DNA from: an uncultured archaeon
GTDB lineage: Archaea > Iainarchaeota > Iainarchaeia > Iainarchaeales > GCA-2688035
Assembly (NCBI GenBank): GCA_964640195.1
Contig: CAZXIC010000002.1
Span: 81,743-145,742, forward strand
Direction: 5' to 3'
DNA length: 64,000 nt
Below, piece after piece: positions 39,948 to 63,831 of the stretch. Each line of letters opens with the position of its first letter. Positions within the stretch are counted from its first letter, which is position 1. The position numbers and the translations under genes are program-made. Under the pieces are notes generated by a model. It saw only the letters and a list, made by a program, of their open reading frames with translations. It was not told the DNA's origin and did not search any database.

Positions 39948-39979
39948 ATTGTTATGTAGCTAGAATGCTACATAATAAT
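39948..39979. repeat. 32-bp near-perfect palindrome: 13-bp inverted arms with a 6-bp spacer (recombinase-core-like)
   Basis: ATTGTTATGTAGC-TAGAAT-GCTACATAATAAT. Arms match 12/13. Lies in a convergent intergenic gap. The arm sequence recurs as half-sites downstream. Confidence 0.6.
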
Positions 39980-39981
39980 AC

Positions 39982-40185
39982 CTATATTAACCCTAACTTC
40001 TTAGCCTTTGGCAACAGCCTCATAACTTGCCTTAATTCATTTAAAAGGGCCTTTTCATCTACAGCGTTTGCAGCAAAGAGTTGTGGTTCTCGTGCTTGCT
40101 CACGTGTTAAAATGCTGAGAAGCTTGTAGGCATCAACTCTTATTTCAGCGAGGCTTCTTCCGACACCATTTTTCCACAAAAACAC
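39982..40185 (-). CDS. Small hypothetical ORF
   Basis: 67 aa. Overlaps the upstream small ORF by 46 nt in another frame, so a frameshifted single gene is possible. Confidence 0.3.
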   Translation of the reverse strand: MFLWKNGVGRSLAEIRVDAYKLLSILTREQAREPQLFAANAVDEKALLNELRQVMRLLPKAKKLGLI

Positions 40186-40349
40186 CTCAATTTGCGCTTA
40201 TCAGGCCTGCCCAAAACTTCTGCCCTGCCCAGCGCCGTAACAGCATTGGCGACTGTTTTAATATCCCTAGCCAAAACGAGTTCTCTGCCCCGTCTTGCAC
40301 GGGTCTTGTTCCGCTTTGCGGCTGAGGTTAGAGTCGCCCTTGCAGCCAT
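40140..40349 (-). CDS. Small basic hypothetical ORF
   Basis: 69 aa from the internal ATG ('MAARATLTSAAKRNKTRARRGRE...'). AT-rich TATA-like stretch about 25 nt upstream. Confidence 0.3.
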   Translation of the reverse strand: MAARATLTSAAKRNKTRARRGRELVLARDIKTVANAVTALGRAEVLGRPDKRKLRCFCGKMVSEEASLK

Positions 40350-40729
40350 TGTAAAATATTTTAGGGCATTCCAAAATAAAAACCCGCCCAAAATGGGCTT
40401 TACTTATACATAACTTATATCCCGCCCTGCCCCTGCGCCGCTCCCTTTCAAGCCACCCCTATTCCGCTATTCAATTTTTCCAGTGCGTTTTTCACATTTT
40501 TTTCAAAATTTCCGAAGGAATTTTACAGTATAATGTAGAATATGTTGTATCCTGTATGCTGTTTTTAGCCACCTCCAGAAGGCGGAAATGGCTTAAAAGC
40601 GTGAAATCAGGCCTCCTGCACTAAAATAGCTGGTTTGACCTGGCTCAACTTTGTCTGGGATGGCTTTAAATTTGAGGGAGCTGCAGAACTTGCAGCAGGG
40701 AGCGCAGGGCCCGCACGGGACGCCTTATA

Positions 40730-40749
40730 GTTATGTAGAAGTTATGGGG
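40730..40749 (+). repeat. Left copy of the cassette-flanking direct repeat
   Basis: GTTATGTAGAAGTTatGGGG. 18/20 identical to 44282-44301. Contains the TAA stop (40742-40744, minus strand) of the TcmP-like gene. Confidence 0.7.
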
Positions 40750-41674
40750 CGAACAGTTTTTTCTGCGTTCCATCAACTACACTAAATCCAGTTTCAATCA
40801 TTTTACAGGTTGTTCTTTCTACCTTCTTTTTTGTATAAATAACCGCTTTGAGCCAGGGGTTCCTTCCCTTTGTTCGTCTTGTAGCAAATATGAGGTCGTA
40901 GAAAAAACTTCCTTCATCACTTTTAATTCTAATGTAGAAACACACATCACGGCCGCTTTTCTTTATGTTAGAAATATATAAATTACACAAATCATCTCTA
41001 TTTAGACCGCCCTCCTTAATCTTCTTAACCTCAACTCCAAAAAACTTTGCGAGTTTTGAATGGGGGATGTCACATTGGGCTGCTTTAATAGCCCTAGCAG
41101 CCCCACATGATTGAAAATTAATAATTAGGTCGCCTGATTTATTCAATAATTTCTGAATCGTTACCCATTCAACTTCCATGTTTTCACAATCAATGAAAGC
41201 AAGGTAGTGGCTATTTTCAGGCATTTCTTCTAGGATTTCATCGATGGCCTGGTTACAATCCTTATGAATTATTTTATAATTTATTTTTGAATAAGCAGGC
41301 AACTTTTTAAGATAACTAATTCTTTTCTCCAAAGCGCCTAATGATTTAGAATTGGTATCTACGAAGAACATTTTTGTGAAGGGTTTGTGAGTGTACAGTG
41401 TGGCTATTAAAGCAGAACCTAAAATGACCTGCTCTTTAACTTTGCACACTCCTGAATCAGCCAATAAATCAATATAATAAAAAGCCCCCCACCTTTTTGG
41501 GATTATCGCACTATAAACTGTTGATAAATAAGATTTTAAAAAAATTAATTTTTTAACCGGCCAGTAGCCATTTTTCTCATAATAGACGCTCTTGCCAAAC
41601 GGCAATAGATTTGCTAAAAGGGAGGGTTTAAGACTAAAAAGCTGTTTCTCAAGCCAAGGTTGTTTGATAGCCAT
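40742..41674 (-). CDS. TcmP-like protein (three-Cys-motif partner family, methyltransferase-like core). Tentative.
   Basis: N-terminal 'WPVKKLIFLKSYLSTVYSAI...FYYIDLLADSGV' resembles the TcmP pattern (K-L-x-L-x-YL ... YID-FAG-G) as I recall it. About 36% GC. Starts 1 nt after the upstream rSAM stop. Confidence 0.55.
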   Translation of the reverse strand: MAIKQPWLEKQLFSLKPSLLANLLPFGKSVYYEKNGYWPVKKLIFLKSYLSTVYSAIIPKRWGAFYYIDLLADSGVCKVKEQVILGSALIATLYTHKPFTKMFFVDTNSKSLGALEKRISYLKKLPAYSKINYKIIHKDCNQAIDEILEEMPENSHYLAFIDCENMEVEWVTIQKLLNKSGDLIINFQSCGAARAIKAAQCDIPHSKLAKFFGVEVKKIKEGGLNRDDLCNLYISNIKKSGRDVCFYIRIKSDEGSFFYDLIFATRRTKGRNPWLKAVIYTKKKVERTTCKMIETGFSVVDGTQKKLFAP

Positions 41675-41675
41675 A

Positions 41676-42641
41676 TCAAATCAGGCAATTACACCTTATT
41701 TTCCTATAATCCATTCCCAGTTCTTCCCACATCTCAACTGTTTCCTTGCAAAGCGCCAGTTTTCTGTATCCAAAGTTGGCTTTTAAGTAGTCCCTAACAA
41801 ATGAATACATTTCTCGTCGCGTGTTGAAGTCTATTTTCTTGCCCCAGTTTGATTTTTCGTTGAGGTATTTTACCCAGCTCTTGTCAGGGCAGCATCTAAT
41901 CGTTGAAGCTAGCCCCCTCAACGACCCGATTGTTATCCTTTCTGGCGTGTAACTATTAAACAGTTTGTCAAGCAACTTACTGTACTCTTTTTTCCAGTTC
42001 TCAATCGGTACCATAGGGTCAACTCTAACTCTTACAACATAGCTCCTCTCATGCAGTTTTTTTCCTGCCTCAATTCTATCAAATGGCGAGGGCGCTTTCT
42101 CCCATCTTTTTGAAACTTCTGGCGCATTTAAACTAAAGCTAACCACCGTCTGGTTATGCTCTTCCATCCCAAGGAGGTTCTTTACGTTAGTAGATTTCGT
42201 GCAAAGAAGCACTTTGTGTTTCCTCTGTTTTTCAAACATCGGCATGATAAACTGCGAAAAAGGTCGTTCCAGATGTTCGGTCATTAGCGAATCGGCAAGC
42301 TCGCCTGAGTTAAGCAGCTCGTTGGAAACCCCGTCATTTTGCAAAAAATAATTTACGTGGTTTGCAATTTTTTCATGGTCCTTTGGCACTGGTGCGGTCT
42401 TTGTTTTGACCATGCGCAGGGTGCCTTTTAAGAAACACCAAGAACAGTTGAAAGGGCAGCCATAGCCCCACTTCAGCTCAAGGAAGTGAGGGCATACAAC
42501 ATCTTGCGCATATTTTGGGATGGGCGTCTTATCAAAACGGGTAATTATTGAGCCATCCTTCACCCGCTCAACTAGGATTTTGGTGCTACCATCCAACAGC
42601 TCGTACTCTTTGTATTTAACAGCCGAGCCCATGTGCAGCAC
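41676..42641 (-). CDS. Radical SAM protein, spore-photoproduct-lyase-like (SplB/COG1533-type)
   Basis: 'VVCPHFLELKWGYGCPFNCSWCFLKG' gives CxxxCxxC plus the upstream Cys typical of the SPL family. About 40% GC. Confidence 0.75.
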   Translation of the reverse strand: MLHMGSAVKYKEYELLDGSTKILVERVKDGSIITRFDKTPIPKYAQDVVCPHFLELKWGYGCPFNCSWCFLKGTLRMVKTKTAPVPKDHEKIANHVNYFLQNDGVSNELLNSGELADSLMTEHLERPFSQFIMPMFEKQRKHKVLLCTKSTNVKNLLGMEEHNQTVVSFSLNAPEVSKRWEKAPSPFDRIEAGKKLHERSYVVRVRVDPMVPIENWKKEYSKLLDKLFNSYTPERITIGSLRGLASTIRCCPDKSWVKYLNEKSNWGKKIDFNTRREMYSFVRDYLKANFGYRKLALCKETVEMWEELGMDYRKIRCNCLI

Positions 42642-42795
42642 TGCTATAATTACAATCTGTTAATATTTAAAATAGGTAGAAAGAGTGGACTTCCGGTGAA
42701 TACTCATTTACAGGCTGCCGATATTAGCCTGCTAACCAGACGGCTCTTGCAGAATCCCTACTTATAAAAATAACATTCCAGATAGATACTATGGC

Positions 42796-44223
42796 ATGGC
42801 AAAGCGGATTTTGTTTGTGAATGGCCCTTCGCAGGACACCTGCGACAGGTTTTTTGGGTGGCCCACCCCATTGCTTTATGCGATAGCGCCAAGCGTTGAT
42901 GCAATCAAGAATGATGAGCTTGATTTGGAGTACGTGCCCAAAATATTTGACCCGATATGGTACGCTGAGGGAAAAAATGATGGCAGAGTAAAGAAGGAAT
43001 TCCTCAGGCAGTTGAACGGCGTTGATGTCGTTTGCGCCAGCTCAACGTATGATTCGCTTTACCCCACAATGCAGTTGTTGGCCGAAGCCAAAAGGGAAGA
43101 CCCGAACATAAGGATTGTTCTGGGCGGGCCGCATTTTGACGAAGTGCACAGCCTTGCTGGATTCAATGATGTGGAAAAGTCTCCTGAACTGGTTGACTTT
43201 GGCGTTGCAGGCGATGGGGAATTTGCATTGAAGGCTCTTCTGGAAGCAATCGCGGCAGATAGCTTGGAGAAGCTTGATTTGTCTTCAGTTCCGGGAAAAG
43301 CTTGGGTGTATTCCAAAAAGGGCGTGCAACCCACCAGCGGGAAGCCCCTTGATTTGAACAGGCTGCCTTTCATGCCCATTGAGCTTGCTGATGTTGAGAG
43401 GCACAAGCACGATTTTGACATTTTCACTGATAGCAGCGGAATACTGCCGACCTTCCAGATGGTTGCTGCCAGGGGATGCACGTATTCTTGCGATTTCTGC
43501 TCTGAAAGAAGACAACTTGCGTACCCTAATGCAAGGTCTGTTGAAAATGTCATTGAGGAAGTCCTATTGCGTAAAGAGCAGGGATTCAAGGCGATTTTCT
43601 TTGACGACAGCACCTTCGGCTTGTACCCGGAGCTGATGGAACTGTTAAAAGAGCTGGGCAAGACAGGCATGGTTTTCGGGAGCCTGAACCGCTTTAACCA
43701 CTTGGACAGGCAGGAAACAGTGGGAGCCTACAAGGATGCTGGCTTTGCCTACCTCTACTGTGCAATCGAGCAGTTCGATGACAGGGCTCTGGCAAAAATG
43801 AGGAAAGGGCAGGGAACGAAAAAAATCGCGGAATCAATGAAACTGTTGTCCAAAAACCAGTTTACTGTCGGGGTTTCCCTGCTTTACGGGCTGCCCTACG
43901 AAACCGGCAATTCAATAAAGGCAACTCTGGACTTTACAGAGGAATGGGTAAATAAGGGAACAGTAAGATTGGTGAGCGAGTCAGTGCTCTCTTTCCATCC
44001 TGCAACCCCTGCCGGAAAAAGCCTCAGGCAGGGCTTCAACCGCACTCCGCCGAACCAGGGCTTTCCCTTCAACAGGTTTGAGGAAGGCCAGTGGTATCAT
44101 CCAGAACACGTGACAGCAGAATACCTGGAAAAAATACTGAAGATGTCCGAGGAGAAATTCAGCAAGGCGATGGTGAGAAACAGGCACTCGTGGTACGCTG
44201 CACAAGGGTTAATTGTGGAGTGA
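42796..44223 (+). CDS. B12-binding-domain radical SAM protein (class B)
   Basis: N-terminal Rossmann-like cobalamin-domain pattern ('ILFVN', 'VVCASSTY', 'IVLGGPHF'), then 'AARGCTYSCDFCSE' (CxxxCxxC). Confidence 0.85.
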   Translation: MAKRILFVNGPSQDTCDRFFGWPTPLLYAIAPSVDAIKNDELDLEYVPKIFDPIWYAEGKNDGRVKKEFLRQLNGVDVVCASSTYDSLYPTMQLLAEAKREDPNIRIVLGGPHFDEVHSLAGFNDVEKSPELVDFGVAGDGEFALKALLEAIAADSLEKLDLSSVPGKAWVYSKKGVQPTSGKPLDLNRLPFMPIELADVERHKHDFDIFTDSSGILPTFQMVAARGCTYSCDFCSERRQLAYPNARSVENVIEEVLLRKEQGFKAIFFDDSTFGLYPELMELLKELGKTGMVFGSLNRFNHLDRQETVGAYKDAGFAYLYCAIEQFDDRALAKMRKGQGTKKIAESMKLLSKNQFTVGVSLLYGLPYETGNSIKATLDFTEEWVNKGTVRLVSESVLSFHPATPAGKSLRQGFNRTPPNQGFPFNRFEEGQWYHPEHVTAEYLEKILKMSEEKFSKAMVRNRHSWYAAQGLIVE

Positions 44224-44281
44224 TGGGTGGTTCAGGGAGCAATAAAAACAGCGCTTCTTTGTGGGGTTGGCACAGAGATTT

Positions 44282-44301
44282 GTTATGTAGAAGTTTGGGG
44301 G
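44282..44301 (+). repeat. Right copy of the cassette-flanking direct repeat
   Basis: GTTATGTAGAAGTTtgGGGG, 58 nt after the B12-rSAM stop. Confidence 0.7.
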
Positions 44302-44384
44302 GACGGAACCAAACTACCCCGCCTCTTTTATTTTATTTAAATTAATAAACATCCCTTGGTATTGGAATTTTCTCCCCATTTTAG

Positions 44385-45086
44385 TTACGTTTCTTTGTAA
44401 CTCGAACTCGTCAAGATTGGGTTGTCCACCAATTTGAAGAGAAGCTTATCTATCCTATCTGTTGTGCTCTTATCCGATAAAAACCTTACGAGAACGAGGG
44501 GTGTACCTTTTGCAACACGGTCGATTATGCCTTTTTGAATGTGTGTATCAGACATGGCAGTTTGGATCATGAAGCAAAACTGCCGATAATTAATTACAAA
44601 TTTATCAAAAAGGCGATTGAAAGTTAGCTCCTGTTGTGCTGGATCGCCTGTTAGTTTATCCAGATAACTCATTATTATGCCAATGTCTCCTGTGCCCACC
44701 ATATCGACAATGTTTATGCCTTTATCCTTATACTTTTTGTGTACTTCTCTTCGACGTTCTTCAGCATCGTTATGCAAGTTGTTTTCATTTAGCCACCTTA
44801 TCTGCTCTGCAATCCTCAGGATGGCGATATATTCCTGATTGACCAGTATGGACTTAAGCCTACGGAGGGTAGAGCTGGACATATCAATGGTAAAAAGCTC
44901 AGCATTAGTAGATGCCGTATCTAAACTAACTTGCTTTGTTTTGAAAAAATTTCGGACAGCCTTTTTTAATTTTGTCTTGAGTTCTTTGGGGATCAATTTC
45001 CAAACGATAAGAATTCGCTTTAAATTTGCGATGGTAATTCCATTCGTAAGTATTGCTTTAATCTCTTCCGAAAGAGGATCTACCAT
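44385..45086 (-). CDS. Hypothetical protein (AT-rich island)
   Basis: 233 aa at about 38% GC. No motif recognised. Lies downstream of a 59-aa ORF on the same strand. Confidence 0.6.
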   Translation of the reverse strand: MVDPLSEEIKAILTNGITIANLKRILIVWKLIPKELKTKLKKAVRNFFKTKQVSLDTASTNAELFTIDMSSSTLRRLKSILVNQEYIAILRIAEQIRWLNENNLHNDAEERRREVHKKYKDKGINIVDMVGTGDIGIIMSYLDKLTGDPAQQELTFNRLFDKFVINYRQFCFMIQTAMSDTHIQKGIIDRVAKGTPLVLVRFLSDKSTTDRIDKLLFKLVDNPILTSSSYKET

Positions 45087-47905: not shown

Positions 47906-47963
47906 GGGCTTTCCGGGAGGACAGCAGTCCAAGGCAAGGAATAAAAGTTATGTTGCAATTCTG

Positions 47964-48704
47964 TTACCTATAAATCTTCTCGCCATCTGCCCGTGTTACT
48001 TCAGCTATTGTTTGCCTCACGCCCGCAAGTTGTTCTGCAACATATTGGTGCAGGGCTTTGCCTGAAAGGCCCATGGCCAGCCCCCTTCGGGTTAACCGCT
48101 CTCTGTCGCTTAAAACATACTTTTGGCTGTAGTCAAAAACTGTTTTCTTTCCCTCCTGCGGCCTTAGCTGGACAAATCGTTTTTTGTCTATTCCCCCAAG
48201 CGTCTTTTTGTTGATTATTGGCTTTATTTTATTTTTTAAAAGGTCTCTTTCAATTAGTTGAATTTCCGGGCATTTGCCCTTTCCATAGCCGCCGATTATT
48301 TCCACCCTTGTGGGTAAGGGCATTGCATTCAGCAAAGCCGGAACAATTTTTTCAGCATAAGCAAACGGCGCCCTGTGCTCGTGGGCTCTTTGTCTTGGAG
48401 GCACGTGGAAAACGATTGCTTTGGGCTGGCCTGGCTTTGCAGCACTGTTTTCAGCAATAACGCCGGTGCAGTAACTCAGCGGTATTGAAACCGCGTGTCT
48501 TGCACAGTCAAGTGCTTGCACGGGCGCTTTCTGGGATGGGGGAAAAGAGGCAATAAAGAGTTTACCTTCTCTCTCAAAAATTGCCATCGCCCTACCAGTA
48601 GTAACCAAGAGGTTAGAGATATAAGCTGGCCTAAGATTCTGTTTTGGTGAAGGTTGCACCCGCCTCCATCTGCCAACCTTCTTTTTCTTTCTGATTTTAG
48701 CCAT
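47964..48704 (-). CDS. Hypothetical protein with basic N-terminus
   Basis: 246 aa. Starts 'MAKIRKKKKVGRWRR'. Preceded by leader copy 2. Confidence 0.55.
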   Translation of the reverse strand: MAKIRKKKKVGRWRRVQPSPKQNLRPAYISNLLVTTGRAMAIFEREGKLFIASFPPSQKAPVQALDCARHAVSIPLSYCTGVIAENSAAKPGQPKAIVFHVPPRQRAHEHRAPFAYAEKIVPALLNAMPLPTRVEIIGGYGKGKCPEIQLIERDLLKNKIKPIINKKTLGGIDKKRFVQLRPQEGKKTVFDYSQKYVLSDRERLTRRGLAMGLSGKALHQYVAEQLAGVRQTIAEVTRADGEKIYR

Positions 48705-48968: not shown

Positions 48969-49368
48969 TTATCTCCTTTAGAACTCTTTTACTTTCTTCT
49001 TTGGAACCTTATTTGTTTATCTTTGGCAGCACGATGAACGCGAACAGTGCGGTTGCTGCTGCAAAACCCCAGAAAATCAACGGGTTGATGTAGGCAGTCA
49101 GGGAAAGAAGTAAGGCTGAAACAAGTGCAGCTATGAGAAAAACTACCAGAATTTTGAGGGCTTTTTGGTTCATGGGGGGCAATTGAATTATGCTGAAAAC
49201 TGTTATAAAACAAGCCAGGAGAGTTTTTTGCCCTTTCCCTTGAAAGGGCGCCTGCCCGGGAATTGGCGCTGTCTTTTCCCTGCGCCAAGGCATAGCTTTC
49301 GCTGGACCGTGCAATAAAAATAAAAAAATAGAAATAGTTTTGAAGAATTCCAAACTGATTGCCTAGAA

Positions 49369-49521
49369 TTAATAGTCTCTTCTTGGTTTCCTGTGTTTCA
49401 TATAGCAGTCTTTGCAGTAAACAGGTCTTGTTCCGTCGGGCTTGAAGGGAACTTCTGTTTCCTTGCCGCAATCGGCACAAGTGACCTTGTGCATTGCCCT
49501 GCCATATTGATCTTCAGCCAT
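49369..49521 (-). CDS. CxxC-x17-CxxC zinc-ribbon mini-protein (50 aa, absent from the ORF track)
   Basis: 'MAEDQYGRAMHKVTCADCGKETEVPFKPDGTRPVYCKDCYMKHRKPRRDY'. GGTGAA RBS-like sequence upstream. A paralog lies at 57731-57901. Confidence 0.8.
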   Translation of the reverse strand: MAEDQYGRAMHKVTCADCGKETEVPFKPDGTRPVYCKDCYMKHRKPRRDY

Positions 49522-50008: not shown

Positions 50009-50075
50009 ACCCCTATTTTATTGTTTCGCACAGCGGTACGCCCCCTTTATCCATTCTTCCATGCCATAATCTGTT

Positions 50076-50441
50076 ATGCCAAAGCTAGTTTACAGCATTT
50101 CAAAAACAAAGGCTGAGCTGGAGAGGAACAGGCTCAGCAGGGACGGGAGGGGGCAAGCCCCCGGCTGCCAGCGCTCGGTTTTGCTTGGGTCGCACAAGAA
50201 GTCCGGAAAGCCTGCTCTTTTTACCGTGTTTGACTTTCTGGAAAAGGCGCTGACAGGAAAGGCTTTTGGCTCGAGGGCAACCTACACTGTAGAGAGGGCC
50301 AGCGGGTGGGTTGGGTATGTTTACGAAAGCGCCCACAACAACTATTTCCTTGTTGAAAAGCGCCACTTTCCCTTGGGCGGGGGCAACCCAAGAATAGAGA
50401 AGGTGCCAATGCCCAACTGCTTGCAGCCAAAGAAGGTTTAA
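50076..50441 (+). CDS. Hypothetical protein
   Basis: 121 aa. The start context CTGTTATGCC resembles the recurring motif. Competes with antisense ORFs. Confidence 0.4.
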   Translation: MPKLVYSISKTKAELERNRLSRDGRGQAPGCQRSVLLGSHKKSGKPALFTVFDFLEKALTGKAFGSRATYTVERASGWVGYVYESAHNNYFLVEKRHFPLGGGNPRIEKVPMPNCLQPKKV

Positions 50442-50520
50442 TTTCCAAAAAAGCCTTTTGCAGGGAATTTTCAAGGGTTGCTCCGCATTTGGCACTGGCA
50501 TACAAGCAGGCTGAGGAAAA

Positions 50521-52075: not shown

Positions 52076-52116
52076 GTTAAGGGATTAAAGTAGCCAGGAA
52101 TCTGTTATGTAGCAGT

Positions 52117-52893
52117 TTAGAACCTTGTTGGCTTATAGTCGCTCCATGTTTTGTTGCCAGTTCTGAAATATTTGCTTATCCTGACATAGCCGTCCCTGTA
52201 TGAGATTACCCCGAGCTCCCTTAGTTGATCCAGTATGCGAATTAATCTGACGCCCGCAAGTCCTTTATTCCCCCTGAACCGCCGCATTAGCCAGCTTTTT
52301 TTGACTGAAAGATGCGGCTTTGAAATAAGTTCATTGACCACAAAAAGTCTTGCCTTGATTACGCGCACGTTTTCGTAAACAACGGGGTTTGGGCCCGCTT
52401 GCCTTAAGACGTTTGGTCTGTTAAGCGATTCCGGCGCCTTTGCCTTGCCTTTTGCAATTGATTCTGCGGAGTAGTTTGCCATTAAGTAAGGGGTTGGCAT
52501 TATGCCGTTGGCAAGGCACACCTCTACTTTTTGCAGGATGTTCGTCGGCCTGAACTGCTTCAGCACATTGAATTTTGTCCAGCCAGGCAACAGTTTGTTC
52601 AGGCACTTTGATGCCTTGTTATCTTCAAGACACCTTTGCTCAAACCTTTTGATAAACCCCTCAAATCCCTTGTTTGGCAATGATAACCTCCAAACAAGCC
52701 CTTCTATTGGCACTCCTGCCTTCTTCATTCTTTTAATCCGCTTGGAAACAAGGCGTGGCGTGATGTTCCTGCTTGCAAGCATGTTAATGCCTTTTTTGCT
52801 AACCTCATAGGGGGAAAGAATTTTTGATATGCCAGCCTTGTTCTGCGGGAAGGTTGAGACAACCTTGTGTTTCTTAGCAATGGCAGTTTGCAT
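52117..52893 (-). CDS. Hypothetical protein with C-terminal wHTH-like segment
   Basis: 258 aa. 'GVRLIRILDQLRELGVISYRDGYVRI' is wHTH-like. The stop abuts a motif copy (52104-52116). Confidence 0.55.
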   Translation of the reverse strand: MQTAIAKKHKVVSTFPQNKAGISKILSPYEVSKKGINMLASRNITPRLVSKRIKRMKKAGVPIEGLVWRLSLPNKGFEGFIKRFEQRCLEDNKASKCLNKLLPGWTKFNVLKQFRPTNILQKVEVCLANGIMPTPYLMANYSAESIAKGKAKAPESLNRPNVLRQAGPNPVVYENVRVIKARLFVVNELISKPHLSVKKSWLMRRFRGNKGLAGVRLIRILDQLRELGVISYRDGYVRISKYFRTGNKTWSDYKPTRF

Positions 52894-53938: not shown

Positions 53939-54024
53939 GGGCTCACCGTTATGGGATAAAAAAAGAGCGTTTGGTTTAAATAGGTTGGTGTTGCGCTTCC
54001 TAAAAAATTGGGCACAACCGGCGG

Positions 54025-54324
54025 CTAAGCTCGTTTTTTGGATTTTGCTCTCTTTTTGGTTTTTGCTCTCTTTTTGGTTTTTGCCCTCTTTTGGGTTGTT
54101 GTGCTCTTTTTGTCTGTTGCCCTCTTTGCCCTGCCAAAACCAAGATACCCTGTCTTGGGGTGCGAAACTGTAAACATGCCGTCTTCGACTTTTGACTTCA
54201 TAAACCGCCTTTCAGGCTCCATCTTAGTTGGCCTTGCCCCCCTCAATGTGCGTTTGTTTGGCCCGCCGATAAGCTCTCCTGATTTGGGCCTCGAAACCCT
54301 GAACATGTTGCCAATAAGGCTCAT
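54025..54324 (-). CDS. Small highly basic protein, paralog of 50521-50850
   Basis: '[19 protein letters not shown]' plus '[19 protein letters not shown]', then a (KRAKTK)n tail. Confidence 0.55.
54043..54114. repeat. 18-bp tandem repeat (2 exact plus 2 degenerate units)
   Basis: TTTTGCTCTCTTTTTGGT x2, then TTTTGCCCTCTTTTGGGT and TGTTGTGCTCTTTTTGTC. Encodes the KKRAKT repeats of the basic protein tail. Confidence 0.85.
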
Positions 54325-54580
54325 TCCCCCTTGTCTTCTCTTACCCCCCGTCTCTGGTAAACACCTAAAGGATTAGCGCTTTTGAAAAATTTAATGGTTT
54401 CGGTTTATCCTCCCGCATTGCTGCCGCACGCCCCATTGCAGGGCAGTACAGCAATCTTTTTTGCAGGCGCTGGCGGCTTAAAGTTCTTGCCTGCGCTTTT
54501 TAGATATGTTTTTATAACCAAAGCAGGCATCTTTTTCAGGGGATTTGTTTTTGGCTGCGTTTGGCGCACACCCGGTTTTT

Positions 54581-56475: not shown

Positions 56476-56476
56476 T

Positions 56477-57541: not shown

Positions 57542-57730
57542 ATTTGCCCCATAGTTTATTCACCTTATATGGGTATTTAAGGGTTATTATTGCAGGGTTG
57601 GGAACACAAGGCTCTGTTATGTATAATTTTGGTGTTTGCCTTTTTGCCTGCGGCAGCGATTAGCCTAACAGAAAATAAAAATAAAAAATTAGAAACTGTT
57701 TTGTACGGAACTTCAACTAATTGCTTAGAA

Positions 57731-57901
57731 TTAGTAGTCTCTTCTTCCACCGAAGCCGCTTCTAGGTTTCCTGTGCTTCATGTAGCACTCTCGGCAGTAA
57801 ACCGGCCTGCTCCCGTCTGGCTTGAAAGGAACTTCAGTCTCTTGACCGCACTCAGAACAGGTTACCTTGAACAGTTGCCTGCCGAACTTATCTTCACCCA
57901 T
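57731..57901 (-). CDS. CxxC-x17-CxxC zinc-ribbon mini-protein (56 aa, absent from the ORF track)
   Basis: 'MGEDKFGRQLFKVTCSECGQETEVPFKPDGSRPVYCRECYMKHRKPRSGFGGRRDY'. The flanks are also similar to the 49369-49521 copy. Confidence 0.8.
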   Translation of the reverse strand: MGEDKFGRQLFKVTCSECGQETEVPFKPDGSRPVYCRECYMKHRKPRSGFGGRRDY

Positions 57902-58104
57902 ATTGTTTTATTCACCTACGTTTTTGATTATATTGCCTGAACTAAGAATCAGGCAAGTAGATATTTTCTACGGGGCATGGTTTTAAAAGGCAATGGGAAG
58001 CCTGCAGGTGAATTCCTTTGAGGGCACTGAAATAGAGGACAGACCAGTAGAAGCGTCAACATTTGACTAAAGGGGGTTTCCCCTTTTCTTTTTTACGCGC
58101 AACA

Positions 58105-58552: not shown

Positions 58553-58843
58553 TCAAAATATTGCGCCCACGTAGCCAAGGGTTTCCTCAACAAGCTGAGG
58601 AAAAAGCAGTACGGCCAATAACAACAACACAAGCAAGAGAATGCCCTCATCCAGCCTGTACCACATCACAAACATCGCTATAACCGGGATTGCAAGCAGC
58701 AGCGGGCTCAAGTGCAGGGTTGCCATCACATATCCTGCAAACATCCCAACAGTGAAAATCAGCAGCAGGAAAGTGCCTATCTTAACCAGCAGAAGGGGGA
58801 TTGCTTTTACAATGCCGCTGAAAAAGTTTGCAACAAACGCCAT
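58553..58843 (-). CDS. Small membrane protein
   Basis: 96 aa with three hydrophobic helices. Confidence 0.5.
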   Translation of the reverse strand: MAFVANFFSGIVKAIPLLLVKIGTFLLLIFTVGMFAGYVMATLHLSPLLLAIPVIAMFVMWYRLDEGILLLVLLLLAVLLFPQLVEETLGYVGAIF

Positions 58844-58869
58844 AATAAAATTAGCTGCCCTCGAAGTAT

Positions 58870-59517
58870 TTAAATTTGCTTTTTTGATGCAACACTTAAA
58901 AAGTAATCACAGCGATTCCTTAAGCCGCACTGCATGCACTTTGGATTGCGGGGCAAGCAGACATGCTGACCGAAGTGGACCATCAGATGATTCAACTCTA
59001 TCCAATGCCTTTTTGGGATTACGCACATCAACTCCAGCTCCGTCTGTGTTGGTTTTTTTGTTTTAACCAAGCCAATCCGGTTGCTGATTCTATGGACGTG
59101 AACATCAACAGGGATTGCCGGCTGCCCAAAGCCGTAAACCAGGACACAGTTTGCGGTTTTCCTGCCAACGCCGGGCAACTGCAGCAACTGCTGCATATCA
59201 CTTGGCACCCTGCCGTTGTGTTTCAGCAATAATTCCTTGCTTATTCCTATAATCCGTTTTGCCTTTTGCCTGTAAAAGCCCGCTGGTTTGATTAAGCACC
59301 TAATCTCTTCCAACTGCGCGCCTGCAATTGCATTTGCTGTGCGATGTCTGGCAAACAACTGGGCTGCCGCTTTCCTTGTGTTGCTGTCCTTTGTTCTCTG
59401 GCTTAGCACTGTTGTAATTAAAACCTTGAAAGGGCTTCCAGGGGGGAAGACGGCTGGTGATGCCGCGCCAACAGTGCGCCGCATCTCCCTCAAGATTAAG
59501 GGAATTTTTTTGTGCAT
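58870..59517 (-). CDS. nth: Endonuclease III (HhH-GPD DNA glycosylase/lyase)
   Basis: 'VLSQRTKD', 'LPGVGRKTANCVL', 'VDVHVHRISNRIG' and Fe-S cluster 'CLPRNPKCMQCGLRNRC'. Confidence 0.9.
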   Translation of the reverse strand: MHKKIPLILREMRRTVGAASPAVFPPGSPFKVLITTVLSQRTKDSNTRKAAAQLFARHRTANAIAGAQLEEIRCLIKPAGFYRQKAKRIIGISKELLLKHNGRVPSDMQQLLQLPGVGRKTANCVLVYGFGQPAIPVDVHVHRISNRIGLVKTKKPTQTELELMCVIPKRHWIELNHLMVHFGQHVCLPRNPKCMQCGLRNRCDYFLSVASKKQI

Positions 59518-59570
59518 CAGAAAAAATGTGGGGAAAACAGCTAAAAATAAAAGGGGGAACGCAAGGGAGA

Positions 59571-59738
59571 TTAAATCGTTTTAATGGGGGTAAAATATTG
59601 CTCCTTACACTCCACACTGCAAAACAACCTGCTGTAAAGATTGCCTGCCGTACCAATCGTTTTCCCGCAATTCAGGCACCGCCATTGCTTTTTCTCAGCA
59701 AAATTCGGTGCGCGCTGCTCCAGCACGGTGATACCCAA
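59571..59738 (-). CDS. Small zinc-finger protein, DUF2116-like (55 aa, absent from the ORF track)
   Basis: TTG start after GAGGTGAGG. 'WRCLNCGKTIGTAGNLYSRLFCSVECKEQY' gives CxxC...CxxxC. Lies upstream of nth on the same strand. Confidence 0.55.
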   Translation of the reverse strand: MGITVLEQRAPNFAEKKQWRCLNCGKTIGTAGNLYSRLFCSVECKEQYFTPIKTI

Positions 59739-59841
59739 CTAACCTCACCTCAAAACAAGATAGATAAGCAAAGAGAATTTAATACTATTTGCTTCAAAAA
59801 GCAAACCCTTGCTTTGCTTTTAATGTAAAAAATAAACAGGT

Positions 59842-60387
59842 TCACTGCTTTTTCTTTCTTTTTTTCTTTTTTGCCTGCTTCTTCTCCTGCGGCGCTCCGC
59901 CTTTCTCCTCTGCTTCCTCTGTCTTCCCTGCTTCAGCTGCCCCTTCCTCTGCGGCTGCCTCTTTAGCTTCCTCTTCCGCTTGGGCTTCTTCTATTCCCTT
60001 TCCCTCTGAAGGCACTTCTTCAACTGCTTCCTCTTTGCCGGCTGCCTCTTCAGCCGCTCCTTCTTCCTTGCCAGGTACTTCTTCAGACACTGCCTCTTCC
60101 TTAGTTGGTGCTTCTTCAGATGCTTCTTCTTTACCTGGTGCTTCTTCAGATGCCGCGCTTGCCTCACCAGCGACCGATCCAAAGGCAACCTTGCCCCTGA
60201 CTGCATCAACCTTCACTTTGACCCTCTGACCCGGCTTTGTGTTTGGAACAATTACTACAAAGCCTTTAATCTTTCCAATGCCGTCTCCCTTTGTGCCTGT
60301 TGCCTCTATTTCAAGGTCATAGGTTTCGCCTTCTTTTACAGGCTTCTCCCCCATGAACCTTTGTTTGTTGTATTTGCTATATGCCAC
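59842..60387 (-). CDS. TRAM-domain protein with long acidic Ala/Glu-rich extension and poly-Lys terminus
   Basis: 'PVKEGETYDLEIEATGTKGDGIGKIKGFVVIVPNTKPGQRVKVKVDAVRGKVAFGSV' is a TRAM fold pattern. The tail is (E/A/G/K)n followed by KKQAKKKKRKKKQ. Confidence 0.8.
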   Translation of the reverse strand: MAYSKYNKQRFMGEKPVKEGETYDLEIEATGTKGDGIGKIKGFVVIVPNTKPGQRVKVKVDAVRGKVAFGSVAGEASAASEEAPGKEEASEEAPTKEEAVSEEVPGKEEGAAEEAAGKEEAVEEVPSEGKGIEEAQAEEEAKEAAAEEGAAEAGKTEEAEEKGGAPQEKKQAKKKKRKKKQ

Positions 60388-60639
60388 CTAAATTCACCTC
60401 CAAACCAAAAAATGAAAGGCCAACCACGGCCCCAAAAACAGTATACTGCTTAGCCCCCCTACTGAACGAGTTGAAAGGATAAACCATGCTCCCCTTATAA
60501 CCCCAAAAAAACAGCAATTCCTTCAGATCCTTCATTATTCCCCTTCACATAATATACTAAGTAACTTAACCGGCGTAACGCTTTTAAAATTTATAGCCTT
60601 GGGTGCCCAAAAAAAGAAGGTAAAGGGCAAAAGGCTGCT

Positions 60640-61020
60640 TTATTTTGGTAGTGTAGGCGTTTTTGACAGGTTGTAGAATGCCTTCAGTGAAACAACCAAG
60701 ACTGCTGGCGCCGCAAACACTGCAATCATCTGCAAAATCTTAGACAACACAGTGCCTAATGGCGTGATGATTGTATCCAACACCAGCAAGCTGCCTGCAG
60801 GAATTCCTACAATCAACAAAGCCATGCCTGCAATCAAGAACGCTTGGACTTCTTTGTCGGCAATGTTCAAAAAGCCGACAATCAATCCTAAGATCACTAG
60901 GACCAATGGGACATAGCCGGCAGTTGTAGGGTCCAGTACGCCGGCAGCCGCACCAGCAAGTATGGCAATGATGATACCTATCAAGAAGGCCCATGAACCA
61001 ACTGCTTGTTGGTTGACCAT
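60640..61020 (-). CDS. Integral membrane protein, unknown function
   Basis: 126 aa with four hydrophobic helices. Confidence 0.6.
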   Translation of the reverse strand: MVNQQAVGSWAFLIGIIIAILAGAAAGVLDPTTAGYVPLVLVILGLIVGFLNIADKEVQAFLIAGMALLIVGIPAGSLLVLDTIITPLGTVLSKILQMIAVFAAPAVLVVSLKAFYNLSKTPTLPK

Positions 61021-61147
61021 TTTTTAGTACCTCCAAACGGTGAAAGGAAAAAAGTAGTATTTAAAGCTATCTTTTTAAGGTTCTGGGGGGGTGGGGGCAA
61101 CAATTCGCATTGCCCCCAAAAAAAACACGCTTGTAGTTATGTATAAG

Positions 61148-61294
61148 TTATGCTTTGTTTTTCTTTCTGTTTGCCCCAAAATTTGCGTACTTCCTATACT
61201 TCTGCATAGTCCATGCTGGGGGCTGCTTTTTCCTCAGCTTGAATTCCTCTTCAAGCAAGCGCGTTCTCAGCACTTCATCTACACCCATATCCAT
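61148..61294 (-). CDS. Small basic hypothetical ORF (48 aa, absent from the ORF track)
   Basis: ATG follows AAGGTGGAG. 'MDMGVDEVLRTRLLEEEFKLRKKQPPAWTMQKYRKYANFGANRKKNKA'. The stop abuts motif copy 61136-61147. Confidence 0.3.
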   Translation of the reverse strand: MDMGVDEVLRTRLLEEEFKLRKKQPPAWTMQKYRKYANFGANRKKNKA

Positions 61295-61383
61295 AACTCC
61301 ACCTTCTTTGCCTTGCTTCTCAAAACACCATAGAAAAGTAGCGGATTGTAATATTCTTATACATTAAACCCTTTAAAAATATA

Positions 61384-61632
61384 TTGTATTTATTAGTTAC
61401 CGCCATGCAGCAAATAAGAGAAATGTTCGCAAAAGGCTGCTTTTTCTTCATTGTCGGCGTTGTGCTCGCAACGCTGTTTGTTTGGGGCATGGTCCAGGGC
61501 ATACTCTCCCACCTTGGGGGCGAAGATTTCACCCTACTCTACTACTTTACCTCATGGCTGGCGGGGGTTGGCGCACTTACACTCTACCACCAAGCCAGGT
61601 CAATCCTGCACTATGCGCAGATATCGAAGTGA
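61384..61632 (+). CDS. Small membrane protein
   Basis: 82 aa with two hydrophobic helices. An internal ATG start is possible. Confidence 0.4.
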   Translation: MYLLVTAMQQIREMFAKGCFFFIVGVVLATLFVWGMVQGILSHLGGEDFTLLYYFTSWLAGVGALTLYHQARSILHYAQISK

Positions 61633-61821
61633 GCAAATCTGCTTTGGTTTTTTAAAACGGCAAACACTACGGCAAACAGGCAGCAATGCCCAGTGCCAAT
61701 CTTCTTAAAAACAACAAACAGCCGCTGCCTGCCAACAGCAAGGCCCAATACCATGCGGCTTAAACAGCGCAACCTTGCTGTCCGCGGATACTAAAAAGAT
61801 AGAAGTAGATTCTATGCCTGC

Positions 61822-62025
61822 CTAATCCCCTGCCTTCTTTGTTTTGTGGGATTTTTTAAACCCTTCCGTTTCCTCCCATTCCTCTATGTCCCCTTTATCC
61901 AATCCAAGCTTTGACAAATAATCCTCATGCTCCTTTGCATCCAGCTTGTTGAACCATTCACGCCAAGCCTTGTCTTCAGGTTTATCTATTTTGCCCCCAG
62001 GCACGGGCTTCAATCTCCTAGCCAT
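61822..62025 (-). CDS. Small charged hypothetical protein
   Basis: 67 aa, K/E/D-rich and Trp-containing ('KAWREWFNKL'). Confidence 0.45.
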   Translation of the reverse strand: MARRLKPVPGGKIDKPEDKAWREWFNKLDAKEHEDYLSKLGLDKGDIEEWEETEGFKKSHKTKKAGD

Positions 62026-62215
62026 GCCAAACCAAAAAGCGTGATACCAAAAATCATTAAAAATGCTACCCTGGGAAGAAAAAAATTAAAATCTTTTCTG
62101 TTCCGCTCTAAGCCATGCAACTGATTTGGCACCACACAGAAAAAGGGGGGAATGCTAACGCCTGCCTTAGGAAAAAAATAAAAGGGGGTAGGGCAATTAA
62201 CTTACAGGTTGGGTT

Positions 62216-63124
62216 ATGCTGCAAAACGGAGCAGGCGCCGGTGTTGAAAAAACAAAAGAGGAAACAATAAAGGGTGGCAGCCCTGCCAACAGCGAACCCG
62301 ATGACTGGCTGCGCAGATTCAAGCAGGAGCTGATTGTAAGCGGCTACAGTGTAAGGACGCAAAAAATGTACTGCTATTACCTGCGGCAGTTCCTGCGCTC
62401 AGAGCAAAGGCCGGTTGCAGACATTGAGAGGGGTGACATAATAAGGTTCCTCGCAGAGAAAAAAGAGAAGGGAAATGCGAGCAACGCCACACTTGCACTG
62501 GCACATGCAGCATTGCGTTTCTTCTTCCACAACATATTGCATAAGAAAATTGTGGACGAAATTAAAACCCCGAAAAAAGCGAAAAAGCTGCCGGTTGTTC
62601 TGACACGGCAGGAGGTCAAGGCACTGATAACCGCGGCTAAGCCAAAAAGAAACCGGCTGATTGTGCAATTCCTGTACAGCACTGGCTGCAGGGTAAGCGA
62701 ATCTGTAAAACTACAGACCATGGACCTCAATTTAAAGGAGAGAACTGGTTTAATAAAAGGCGGCAAAGGAAACAAGGACAGGACAATCATACTGTCAAAG
62801 GAATGGATAAAAGCGGCAAAGAAATATCTGGCGAGAAAGAAAGCAAAAACCCCCTTTGTTTTCAGCAAAAAAAACGGCAAACCAATTTCTGCAGACACTG
62901 TACAGAGGATAGTCAGGGGGGCTGCAAAAAAAGCAGGCATCCAAAAAGAGGTGACGCCGCACACGCTTAGGCACAGCTATGCCACCCACCTGCTCGAGGC
63001 AGGGGAAAATATTAGAAAAATACAAGAATTGCTTGGCCATTCAAACCTCAACACAACACAAATATACACCCAGATTTCGCTGCAGGAGTTGAAAAAAGTC
63101 CAAAGCCCCTTGGATAAACTCTGA
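62216..63124 (+). CDS. xerA: Tyrosine recombinase, XerA/XerCD-like
   Basis: N-terminal SAM-like core-binding domain, 'GCRVSE' (catalytic Arg region), 'HTLRHSYATHLLEAGENIRKIQELLGHSNLNTTQIYTQ' (R-H-x-x-R..H..Y). Confidence 0.9.
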   Translation: MLQNGAGAGVEKTKEETIKGGSPANSEPDDWLRRFKQELIVSGYSVRTQKMYCYYLRQFLRSEQRPVADIERGDIIRFLAEKKEKGNASNATLALAHAALRFFFHNILHKKIVDEIKTPKKAKKLPVVLTRQEVKALITAAKPKRNRLIVQFLYSTGCRVSESVKLQTMDLNLKERTGLIKGGKGNKDRTIILSKEWIKAAKKYLARKKAKTPFVFSKKNGKPISADTVQRIVRGAAKKAGIQKEVTPHTLRHSYATHLLEAGENIRKIQELLGHSNLNTTQIYTQISLQELKKVQSPLDKL

Positions 63125-63447
63125 TTCCTTAAAAAGCCGCTAGCCCCTTGATGCAACAACAACAGGGCCCCCATACTTCAAGTATTCCACTCTGGCAACC
63201 CGGCCGCCAAATAAAATAAAAATTTCCAGTGAGAATGGAAGGGGTTTGCAAGGCGGCCCCTGGTTATGTATAAGGATGAAAAATCCCCCCACTTTAAATT
63301 TTTGGTCCACTCGAAAGGCACCGCCATTCTTTCAAGTATTTTTTATTATGTAGAATTTACTGCCGGCGCTGGTTTGCAAGACAAAAGATTTATATAGGTA
63401 AACGGGTTTAATTTAATACCAATATAACGTCCCAGGAGGAATCAAAT

Positions 63448-63741
63448 ATGACAATGCGCTTGTCAAAAATGTTTGGCATGGACATCTACACTACAGACGC
63501 AGACTACAGAGGGAAGATATTTGACTTGGTTATAAACCTTGAAAAGGGCAGAATAGAAACAATAACAACCGAGGCCCTGAAAGCGAGGACAAAACAGGAA
63601 GCAAAGAAAATTATAAGTGAGAAAAGCATCCCCTACAAAAACGTTAAATCCGCAAAGGACATCCTAATTGTCGCAGGCAAGGGGAGTGCAGCGCGCAGCG
63701 AACAGCCAGAGCCGACCTACTACCGCTACAAAAGAAGGTAA
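63448..63741 (+). CDS. PRC-barrel-domain protein
   Basis: 'LSKMFGMDIYTTDADYRGKIFDLVINLEKGRIETI' matches the PRC-barrel pattern. Canonical TTTATATA lies about 52 nt upstream. Confidence 0.6.
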   Translation: MTMRLSKMFGMDIYTTDADYRGKIFDLVINLEKGRIETITTEALKARTKQEAKKIISEKSIPYKNVKSAKDILIVAGKGSAARSEQPEPTYYRYKRR

Positions 63742-63807
63742 GCCCGCCACACCAGCCAACTTCTCTCTTTTCTTTCTCTTCTTTTACATCCTTAACGTTT
63801 TTATACT

Positions 63808-63831
63808 GTTATGTTTTATATTATACATAAG
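63808..63831. repeat. Second inverted-arm site with a 6-bp spacer, related to 39948-39979
   Basis: GTTATGTTT-TATATT-ATACATAAG. Arms match 7/9 as an inverted repeat. About 700 bp downstream of the recombinase gene. Confidence 0.4.

Follow-up and report, generated by a model that had tools for sequence, protein, structure and literature searches.

A recurrent 12-base word around xerA

The 64,000-nt stretch of contig CAZXIC010000002.1 analyzed here in full (the window) carries a recurrent 12-base word, GTTATGTA(G/T)AAG, whose copies cluster near a gene for a Xer-type tyrosine recombinase, xerA, and reverse their orientation at a conserved 0.8-kb element. The window belongs to a DPANN archaeon of Iainarchaeota, with archaeal-type genes including those for an archaeal D-aminoacyl-tRNA deacylase, the mevalonate pathway, a FlaI/PilB-type ATPase and pyruvate phosphate dikinase; it holds no tRNA genes and no Rfam matches at gathering thresholds. 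For comparison, we fetched from genome assemblies 80 loci around xerA homologs (labeled L; L162 lies on the same contig as L002, and L165 on the same contig as L006). As a control set, we used 80 loci around the PilB-like ATPase gene, which in the window, as in the complete genome CP010424.1, is located ~60–70 kb to the left of xerA.

The word is strongly overrepresented. In the window, we found 10 matches to GTTATGTA against 0.58 expected, a count that none of 100 dinucleotide shuffles reached. In the 9.1 kb of intergenic DNA, there are 6 matches against 0.13 expected (best of 300 shuffles, 2), so the count cannot be put down to the AT-rich composition of the spacers. With a weight matrix built from relatives alone, the window has 11 matches, compared to 1.7 in shuffles. 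The extended consensus comprises 1) an A-rich tract 5–15 nt 5' of the core, 2) GTTATGTA(T/G)AAG, and 3) a degenerate second GTTwtGG. This enrichment is a real feature. A first-pass annotation of the same DNA, which had picked out the family by eye, had named two outcomes that would speak against it, an ordinary TATA box at −25 to −35 of starts and a frequency explained by composition; we observed neither, and the finding therefore stands. Within the window, the left 39.9 kb contains 3.5 kb of spacer DNA without a strong intergenic copy, while the right 24 kb contains 5.7 kb of spacer; the difference in density between the two parts is real but modest. The copies and associated features are as follows, with weight-matrix scores in brackets.

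9992–9999 and 20102–20109, minus strand: two in-gene matches (17.4 and 18.8)
35824–35834, minus strand: A-type variant ATTATGTATAC, 15 nt before the start of gene 35330–35809 (minus)
39950–39977: P1, head-to-head pair TGTTATGTAGC-TAGAAT-GCTACATAATA between convergent genes, with a copy at 39951 (plus) and its partner at 39966–39976
40404–40414, minus strand: inner copy GTTATGTATAA, ~50 nt upstream of a small minus-strand gene (39982–40391)
40415–40729: conserved noncoding core with a box resembling an origin recognition box (ORB) at 40453–40474 (CCACCCCTATTCCGCTATTCAA), a T-rich tract and a GTATAAT..GATTAT block
40730–40747, plus strand: outer copy GTTATGTAGAAGTT (at 40730), extended as GTTATGTAGAA-GTTATGG, adjoining the stop of a tcmP-like gene (20.8)
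44282–44299, plus strand: copy GTTATGTAGAAGTT in the spacer of convergent genes 42796–44223 (plus) and 44385–45086 (minus) (23.5; family D10)
47947–47957, plus strand: weak copy GTTATGTTGCA, 6 nt off the stop of gene 47964–48704 (minus) (11.6)
50073–50083, plus strand: degenerate copy GTTATGCCAAA, 16 nt off the stop of gene 50100–50501 (minus) (under the matrix threshold)
52104–52121, plus strand: copy GTTATGTAGCAGTT (fuller form GTTATGTAGCAGTTTAG) in a 41-nt convergent spacer, adjoining the stop of gene 52117–52893 (minus) (19.5)
57616–57633, plus strand: copy GTTATGTATAA between the start of the phosphofructokinase gene (57541) and the 3' end of a zinc-ribbon gene (~57716–57901, minus) (22.1)
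61136–61153, plus strand: copy GTTATGTATAA-GTTATGC, adjoining the stop of a conserved 48-aa gene, 61148–61294 (minus) (19.0)
62216–63124, plus strand: xerA, a single-copy Xer-type tyrosine recombinase gene (XerA_Arch, 267 bits vs. a cut-off of 220; Pfam)
63263–63355, plus strand: two direct copies, at 63263 (GTTATGTATAA) and 63345 (ATTATGTAGAAT), 82 nt apart, between xerA and a PRC-barrel gene
63808–63831: P2, head-to-head pair GTTATGTTTTATATTATACATAAG over the AT-rich promoter region of a gene encoding a protein of ~198 aa

All the copies listed in the first-pass annotation, at 39951, 40531, 40730, 44282, 52104, 57616, 61136, 63263, 63345 and 63808, together with the weaker ones at 47947 and 50073, were recovered at their places. 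At 40531, however, the sequence (TAATGTAGAA, one mismatch) belongs to a different conserved block, GTATAAT..GATTAT, rather than to the motif family. The annotation had also confined the family to the last 25 kb, which holds for the plus-strand orientation but not for the family itself; minus-strand copies are present in the left part at 9992, 20102 (both in genes), 35824, 39966 and 40404. About 0.5–1 match is expected by chance in the 55 kb of coding DNA, and the matches at 9992 and 20102 may be either chance or real sites. Family membership of the copy at 50073–50083 is doubtful. The site at 35824 has kept orthologous counterparts in L162, L164, L165 and L166, and four of eight compared genomes have a copy at the place equivalent to 61136.

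Across ~50 Iainarchaeota xerA loci, the word is common and shows a strong strand bias relative to xerA, but it is essentially absent from the xerA loci of Aenigmatarchaeota, Woesearchaeota and bacteria. Although the compared sequence is ~82% coding, 111 of the 163 matches at xerA loci are intergenic, and the density in spacers is 0.64 matches/kb near xerA compared to 0.12/kb in control loci. A recurrent TGTTATGTATAAAATTG ~4 kb from xerA was discarded as a false positive, since it is coding sequence for seryl-tRNA synthetase (Val-Met-Tyr-Lys).

The position of copies relative to genes depends on the flanking base, and the split of TATAA-like from G variants made in the first pass proved sensible, with A/T-flanked copies near starts and G-flanked copies at stops. 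Within 30 nt of a stop codon, G-flanked copies (GTTATGTA[GT]) are antisense in 22 cases vs. sense in 10; about half of these 10 are single copies in convergent spacers that also adjoin an antisense gene, and two are the arms of P1. Otherwise, G-type copies are found 40–270 nt from start codons. Read on the opposite strand, the motif has TAA in two frames and supplies the stop codon in several cases (40742, 52117 and 61148). The minus-strand stops singled out previously (40742, 47964, 52117 and 61148) do exist, 1–16 nt from a copy, but the idea that the core reads as a start-stop (ATG-TAG) found no support. A-flanked variants (ATTATGTAT..) lie 5–22 nt before start codons in the same direction as the gene and may form a separate promoter-proximal class. 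The orientation seen at stops is also kept upstream of co-directional genes and in divergent spacers. Genes with the motif upstream also have a canonical TATA box between the motif and the start (GATTTATATAGG before 63448 and CTTTAAATAC before 61020).

Orientation flip at a conserved switch element

Left of 40.5 kb, matrix matches in the window are three on the minus strand and one on the plus strand, the latter being the left arm of a palindrome, while right of this point all seven are on the plus strand (Fisher p = 0.024). A similar polarity is seen in the fetched loci, where intergenic matches number 97 plus and 10 minus around xerA vs. 0 plus and 11 minus in the 80 control loci. At xerA loci, orientation is independent of the direction of the flanking genes, with 38 plus and 6 minus copies whether those genes converge, diverge or run in tandem. 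On the DTD2 side of the element, every copy in four further genomes is oriented the other way.

The flip coincides with a conserved 0.8-kb element at 39950–40747 that we named the switch element. It consists, in order, of P1, ~430 nt with a small frameshifted gene, the inward copy at 40404–40414 (minus), ~315 nt of noncoding DNA and the outward copy at 40730 (plus). L162, L165, L052, L047 and L030 share this layout (palindrome, ~400 nt, inward copy, 200–350 nt of noncoding DNA, outward copy), and P1 is kept in all five, at 5419/5441 in L162 and 3667/3689 in L165. The window, L162 and L165 share CTTACTTMTACATAAC at the inner copy. The ends of the noncoding core pair as imperfect inverted repeats of ~45 nt, with fold z-scores of −2.9 and −4.3, and a search of 39850–40800 against Rfam with relaxed thresholds returned one weak chance match and no family. 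The 350-nt portion at 40400–40745 has terminal inverted repeats, but we rejected a miniature inverted-repeat transposable element because there is one copy of this portion, which several genomes have at orthologous positions, and no target-site duplication. The small gene corresponds to two overlapping minus-strand open reading frames (ORFs) of 67 and 83 aa at 39982–40391 that jointly match one 115-aa basic protein encoded at 5062–5409 in L162, and the window gene is therefore frameshifted, as either a pseudogene or an assembly error. The 115-aa product was rejected as a universal binder because its gene is found only in the window (frameshifted) and in L162.

The geometry of the sites is constrained. 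When we measured head-to-head pairs, TTATGT-N11-ACATAA accounted for 37 of 52 pairs at gaps of 0–40 nt and for 37 of 41 at gaps of 12 nt or less; N10 occurred once, N12 twice and N8 never. P1 has an N12 gap in the window and an N11 gap in most relatives. Direct copies are spaced by 51–54 nt (n = 14), 62–65 nt (n = 19), 73–74 nt (n = 2) or 82 nt (n = 1), which are multiples of ~10.5 nt and thus in step with the DNA helix. Head-to-tail 11-nt repeats are formed at 40730 (GTTATGTAGAA-GTTATGG), where the adjacent tcmP-like gene is 40742–41674 (minus), and at 61136 (GTTATGTATAA-GTTATGC). The fixed gap and the phasing indicate properties that would be expected of protein-bound DNA sites on one face of the helix rather than of RNA signals or core promoters.

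To the left of the switch element lies 36314–39061 (minus), encoding a 915-aa protein without a family match that is composed of tandem Cys/Asp-rich modules (...CDDSNSLTTDxCLNPGTCxAxCS...) and ends in a C-terminal transmembrane segment and a coiled-coil tail. Homologs of 856–888 aa are encoded at the same position in L162 and L165.

The xerA module, the variable segment and the terminus-like context

The genomic anchor of the motif cluster is xerA. Its product scores 216.8 bits, in two stretches, with the integron-integrase model TIGR02249, under the cut-off of 265; among the best-scoring matches, homologs are 58–79% identical, and the named ones are nearly all from Candidatus Diapherotrites/Iainarchaeota metagenome-assembled genomes. 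In ~45 genomes, the order is the same: the xerA stop, a box CCCC(G/A)CACTTCCACTAAT, 2–3 direct motif copies, a TATA box GATTTATATA, the PRC-barrel gene (63448–63741 in the window), P2, an inverted box ATTAGTGGAAGTGTGGGGGG and the ~198-aa gene. In relatives, the 2–3 copies between xerA and the PRC-barrel gene are 51–54 or 62–65 nt apart, and P2 is kept downstream of the PRC-barrel gene in nearly all of them. PRC-barrel proteins act in archaeal cell division.

The two boxes, at 63168–63186 and 63856–63876 in the window, form an inverted pair that spans 0.6–1.1 kb with the PRC-barrel gene and occurs at nearly all Iainarchaeota loci (L002–L054), almost only beside xerA. A third, diverged box of AGTGGAA...GGGG type is found in the switch element, at 40453–40474. 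Euryarchaeal ORBs occur as inverted copies that flank an AT-rich region beside orc1/cdc6. Compared to their consensus, GTTCCAGTGGAAAC-AAA----GGGGG, the AGTGGAAGTGTGGGG boxes have the 7-nt core AGTGGAA and the G-run in common but lack TTCC and have a shorter spacer. We rejected a replication origin at xerA because no Cdc6-like ORF was found in any fetched locus and because the skew right of xerA is of the wrong sign; a literature search on Iainarchaeota replication origins gave no result.

The ~198-aa gene (63870–64000 in the window, 5' part only; 11574–12170 in L002; P0241–P0360) is always linked to xerA, phylum-wide. Its product has no sequence match in Pfam, NCBIfam or PDB, and the AlphaFold model (pLDDT of 86.5) has no significant fold match in PDB (best E = 0.047). 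With no family or fold match, it was set aside as a recognizable DNA-binding protein.

Two further repeats are found near xerA. In relatives, 3–5 copies of a palindromic 8-mer, GTAATTAC, lie within ~90 nt at a conserved location ~2 kb from xerA (L039 3107–3196, L043 3608–3679, L020 9887–9919, L003 13032–13083 and L008 10932–11002), and look like the operator cluster of another regulator; the window ends short of this position. In the Aenigmatarchaeota loci L067, L068 and L070, a different perfect palindrome specific to that lineage, TGTTAGACGTCTAACA, occupies spacers 0.4, 2.2 and ~9.8 kb from xerA.

Between the switch element and xerA, the distance varies from 2.5 kb (L052) to 11 kb (L002 genome), 21.5 kb (window) and ~41 kb (L006 genome), while both flanks, i.e., the DTD2-side genes and the xerA cluster, are syntenic across genomes. 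Accessory-looking genes in this segment include a TcmP/radical-SAM cluster, many ORFs without a family match and, in L165, toxin–antitoxin genes; housekeeping genes for phosphofructokinase, aldolase and endonuclease III are present as well, and the GC content is low (0.40–0.41) at 40–46 kb. Immediately next to the switch element, in the part of the window with the lowest GC content (0.40), 40742–44223 comprises a TcmP-like gene (three-Cys-motif partner, TIGR04474) and two radical-SAM genes, one SPL-like and one B12-binding, and has the look of an acquired accessory cluster. Two paralogous minus-strand zinc-ribbon genes, 49313–49521 and 57674–57901 (MAEDQYGRAMHKVTCADCGK...), are followed by T-rich regions that are 90% identical, and the motif adjoins only the 57.6-kb copy; a plus-strand ORF at 57590–57940 is spurious, the real gene being the small zinc-ribbon gene on the minus strand. 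Upstream of an SPFH/band-7 gene, the unusually long 606-nt spacer 53939–54544 contains five tandem 18-nt repeats, TTTTTGGTTTTTGCTCTC, at 54017–54127.

Relatives also show an ORF-free region of ~450–520 nt between two plus-strand copies (L002 3742–4186 and L003 3344–3836), with equivalents in L004, L006, L007, L010, L013, L020, L035 and L053. Its 3' block is conserved, AAACCATTTTGCGGCTTTTGC ... TAGGGGTTTTAGGG. The region is without an Rfam family, and in the window all that is left is a decayed trace of one of the flanking copies, near 58040. We found no conserved ORF between the paired copies in relatives. A search of the window and eight loci against Rfam at gathering thresholds returned only tRNAs, unrelated to the motif.

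Gene direction and strand composition both change near the switch element. Genes at 18–34 kb are on the plus strand and those at 47–61 kb on the minus strand, and genes converge on ~40 kb; cumulative GC skew rises up to ~40 kb, is then near-flat with a peak at ~56 kb and falls afterward. To part replication-linked from coding bias, we took the coding strand of each gene and measured skew at its four-fold degenerate positions. In the left-hand, control loci, genes oriented toward the element have a GC skew of +0.014 vs. −0.083 for the others (p = 4e-6); right of xerA, minus-strand genes have a skew of 0.0 vs. −0.077 for plus-strand genes (p = 0.013). For the window on its own, AT skew does differ (p = 0.005), with the sign found in the other two sets. 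These differences in the left and right sets mean that the G-rich strand changes between the two domains, which would be the pattern of a terminus on the assumption that the leading strand is G-rich in this lineage.

Readings of the motif

The motif is distinct from the ordinary TATA box, from attC sites and from canonical dif sites; it is probably, judging from its geometry and distribution, the docking site of a DNA-binding protein rather than an ordinary promoter. Our tentative preference, which we hold at somewhat below even confidence, is that the copies, in a region that resembles a terminus and is linked to xerA, are docking or roadblock sites whose effect depends on orientation. One sequence-specific Iainarchaeota DNA-binding protein would recognize GTTATGTA(G/T)AAG, its basic unit being the asymmetric half-site RTTATGTA, which would be used singly, as a head-to-tail 11-nt repeat, head-to-head with a fixed 11-nt gap or in one-face arrays. 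The sites, with what would be a chromosome-scale polarity, point away from the 0.8-kb element on both sides and are densest around xerA and in the variable accessory segment that leads to it from the element. Once bound, the protein would act as an orientation-dependent roadblock or landmark, with a logic like that of bacterial Ter/RTP or XerD-binding XDS sites; at the ends of transcription units it might stop transcription or replication heading toward the element and would thereby mark a terminus-like, Xer-linked region.

The closest parallels are the fork traps Tus/Ter of Escherichia coli and RTP/Ter of Bacillus subtilis. As in these systems, the sites are short and mostly intergenic, predicted here to be protein bound, form two opposed groups that flip at one locus and cluster in a terminus-like region near xer; the resemblance to Bacillus RTP/Ter extends to paired half-sites and to a small gene beside a central inverted pair. 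The differences are that no Tus/RTP homolog was identified here, that the site sequence is unrelated and that the density is much higher, ~1 per 2–5 kb. We know of no fork trap in any archaeon. A flip between two opposed groups, as for Ter or XDS sites, is observed, and the status of the locus as a terminus is suggested by gene convergence and skew. The bacterial KOPS are polar chromosome words. The ASPS of Thermococcales are likewise polar (PMC2958812). As with both, the direction of the copies goes with the replichore and turns toward or away from a dif- or terminus-like point, but those words are 4–8 nt, genome-wide and mostly in genes, while the motif is 12 nt, in spacers, locally clustered and found in palindromes and phased arrays.

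XerA itself is a possible, though doubtful, candidate for the binding protein. The dif site, present once per chromosome at the terminus, is an imperfect 28-bp palindrome whose two 11-bp arms enclose a 6-bp spacer, and the E. coli XerD arm, TTATGTTAAAT, resembles the motif core. The core TTATGTAtAAg also matches the Pyrococcus abyssi dif arm, TTATATCTAAA, at 8 of 11 positions, an Xer-type gene is adjacent and the context is terminus-like. P1 can be read as 11-6-11 in the window and 11-5-11 in L162 and L165. The XDS are dif-like sites that only XerD binds, dispersed over the terminus region of Bacillus (mentioned in PMC11840125). We nevertheless rejected a canonical dif site, since the palindrome arms are in reverse register (TTAT outward) and lack the central TAA-N6-8-TTA that archaeal dif sites conserve, and since no conserved canonical arrangement was found when the window was scanned for ATATAA-N6-TTATAT and all the loci for inward-TTAT arms with a 5–8 nt spacer. 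In addition, most copies are single arm, and there are at least two palindromes (P1, at the terminus-like switch, and P2) within 24 kb, while dif is unique.

Several observations weigh against the docking-site reading. The polarity in relatives comes partly from orthologous, nonindependent sites, while the window alone gives p = 0.024, and the matches in control loci are mostly A-type copies by the start of one orthologous gene. The window alone shows no difference in GC skew at four-fold sites (0.081 vs. 0.076), the difference left of xerA is not significant, the terminus prediction depends on the leading strand being G-rich, and genes from xerA rightward are directed away from the element. 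The enrichment, conservation, geometry and polarity of the sites, their clustering by xerA and the switch element itself are observations; the binding protein, fork arrest at the sites and a replication terminus in this region are predicted. Both the palindrome over a promoter and the direct copies that separate xerA from the PRC-barrel gene have the appearance of ordinary operators. The archaeal transcription factor ModE uses an identical half-site, and in the palindromes TTAT faces outward, opposite to all known dif sites.

A more specific version of the docking-site reading would be a dedicated Iainarchaeota terminus system, in which dozens of oriented sites form two opposed arrays that meet at an element with a central palindrome and are bound by XerA or another factor. 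The arrays would trap replication forks, RNA polymerase or SMC complexes in one direction, or serve as their landing pad, and would border an Xer-linked accessory hotspot. Taken as a whole, this scheme seems unlikely on what the sequences suggest.

The main rival, also among the options that the first-pass annotation named without choosing between them, is that the motif is the operator of a lineage-specific regulator, a winged-helix protein of ModE/LysR type or another dimeric factor, and it owes this place to a half-site that is also that of ModE in Methanosarcina. The experimentally verified ModE operator of Methanosarcina acetivorans is RTTATGT-N8-RCATAAY (PMC12327845), the one relevant paper that a literature search for the motif string brought up, apart from primers. 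The 7-nt half-site RTTATGT is the same, and the sites are palindromic with an AT-rich spacer and present at multiple intergenic places. Palindromes would then be full operators, singles half-operators and phased arrays cooperative upstream sites, for a regulon including the PRC-barrel gene, the 198-aa gene and others. This would suit P2, over the AT-rich promoter of the 198-aa gene, the 2–3 phased copies 40–180 nt upstream of the TATA box of the PRC-barrel gene, the inner copy ~50 nt upstream of the small gene and the A-type variants co-oriented with genes 5–22 nt before their starts, and the fixed gap with helical phasing would fit a cooperative dimer. A ModE operator proper was rejected on its geometry, because the gap is N11 in 37 pairs, N10 in 1 and N12 in 2 but never N8; moreover, most sites here are single and oriented, and their chromosome-scale polarity has no ModE counterpart. 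Using tblastn with an N-terminal sequence of E. coli ModE as the query, we found no ModE-like gene in 2 Mb of fetched DNA, although this is a weak test, and we saw no molybdenum- or tungsten-related genes nearby. An operator of any kind has to contend with strong copies that have no promoter, in the convergent spacers at 39951, 44282 and 52104 and at stops, with an orientation that is independent of the adjacent gene and flips at one locus, and with flanking genes that share no common functional theme. We regard an operator as possible but rather unlikely.

Recombination half-sites, one of the suggestions of the first-pass annotation, would be sites or scars of XerA-mediated insertion of modules beside a primary site, as in integrative mobile elements exploiting Xer (IMEX), dif modules or an integron array, which would account for copies facing the same way at the ends of modules in a hypervariable segment. 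The known attC sites are inverse-core/core pairs, RYYYAAC ... GTTRRRY, 50–150 nt apart, that fold into a hairpin. The likeness to an integron lies in co-oriented copies at the 3' ends of minus-strand genes running away from a tyrosine recombinase gene, copies that often supply the TAA stop, as attC does, and in variable gene content; the 2.5–41 kb variation between syntenic flanks, the accessory-type genes with toxin–antitoxin genes in L165, the low GC content at 40–46 kb and the resemblance of the core to Xer arms also fit. The defining features of both site types that we tested, integron attC and canonical dif, are nonetheless missing. Most copies have no inverted partner, which leaves no two-armed core site, and the palindromes are in reverse register to dif, with a gap that differs by 1–2 nt between genomes. 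We rejected attC because no consistent inverted core partner was found within 300 nt of copies, no R''/R' pair or folded hairpin and no Rfam match was seen, and the recombinase is of XerA rather than IntI type, under the integron-integrase cut-off. An integron integrase needs an IntI-specific additional domain (PMC9668308), and XerA lacks an integron-integrase signature. Modules here comprise 3–8 genes, housekeeping genes included, with ~8 genes between successive copies in the L002 genome. When blocks were compared between the window and L003, as the annotation had proposed for relatives, the breakpoints fell near copies but not exactly at them, and copies also occupy conserved orthologous positions outside the variable segment. 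Recombination sites are thus decidedly unlikely.

A promoter element, i.e., a variant TATA/BRE for TBP and TFB that drives noncoding or antisense RNAs, including in the 320–700-nt regions flanked by copies, is very unlikely. The A-rich tract 5–15 nt upstream, the AT-rich and nearly symmetric core and the A-type variants near start codons would be in keeping with it, as would copies bordering conserved ORF-free regions (window 40415–40729, L002 3742–4186 and L052 6758–7470). An archaeal core promoter has an AT-rich 8-mer centered ~26 nt upstream of the transcription start, which for short leaders means ~25–35 nt ahead of the gene. However, canonical TATA boxes (TTTAAA/TTTATATA) are separately present at the same genes, ~25–35 nt upstream of tRNA and protein genes, while G-type copies are found elsewhere, which led us to reject a core promoter as well as, since tRNA genes use another TATA box, a promoter of tRNAs or noncoding RNAs. 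As the first-pass annotation had noted, the G variants fit a TATA box less well, and TAGAAG is a poor one; the distance to downstream starts is broad (40–270 nt), the flanked regions are without an Rfam family, and fixed N11 palindromes with helical phasing are foreign to core promoters. The annotation had also raised a 3'-end signal, and the association with stops is real, but a terminator acting in RNA, CUUMUACAUAAC just after the stop, is most improbable: 22 G-type copies are antisense within 30 nt of a stop and P1 could form a 10-bp hairpin between convergent genes, yet copies keep this orientation ahead of co-directional genes (xerA to PRC-barrel) and in divergent spacers, single copies have no hairpin or T-run, and helical phasing over 50–80 nt is a property of DNA.

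To our knowledge, polar terminus sites are yet to be described for an archaeon, and essentially nothing is known of how the small chromosomes of DPANN archaea are replicated, terminated and segregated. In practical terms, the motif, which is easy to recognize and mappable on any metagenome-assembled genome, flags a hypervariable segment of 2.5–41 kb between two syntenic anchors. Should it be only an operator, it would be the first regulon motif for the phylum, with a ModE-type half-site at a different spacing. A dedicated terminus system, if that is what the sites form, would be the first of fork-trap or XDS-like kind to be described for archaea. A phylum-wide 12-nt word whose orientation flips near xerA and the PRC-barrel gene provides a testable handle on the chromosomes of uncultivated archaea.

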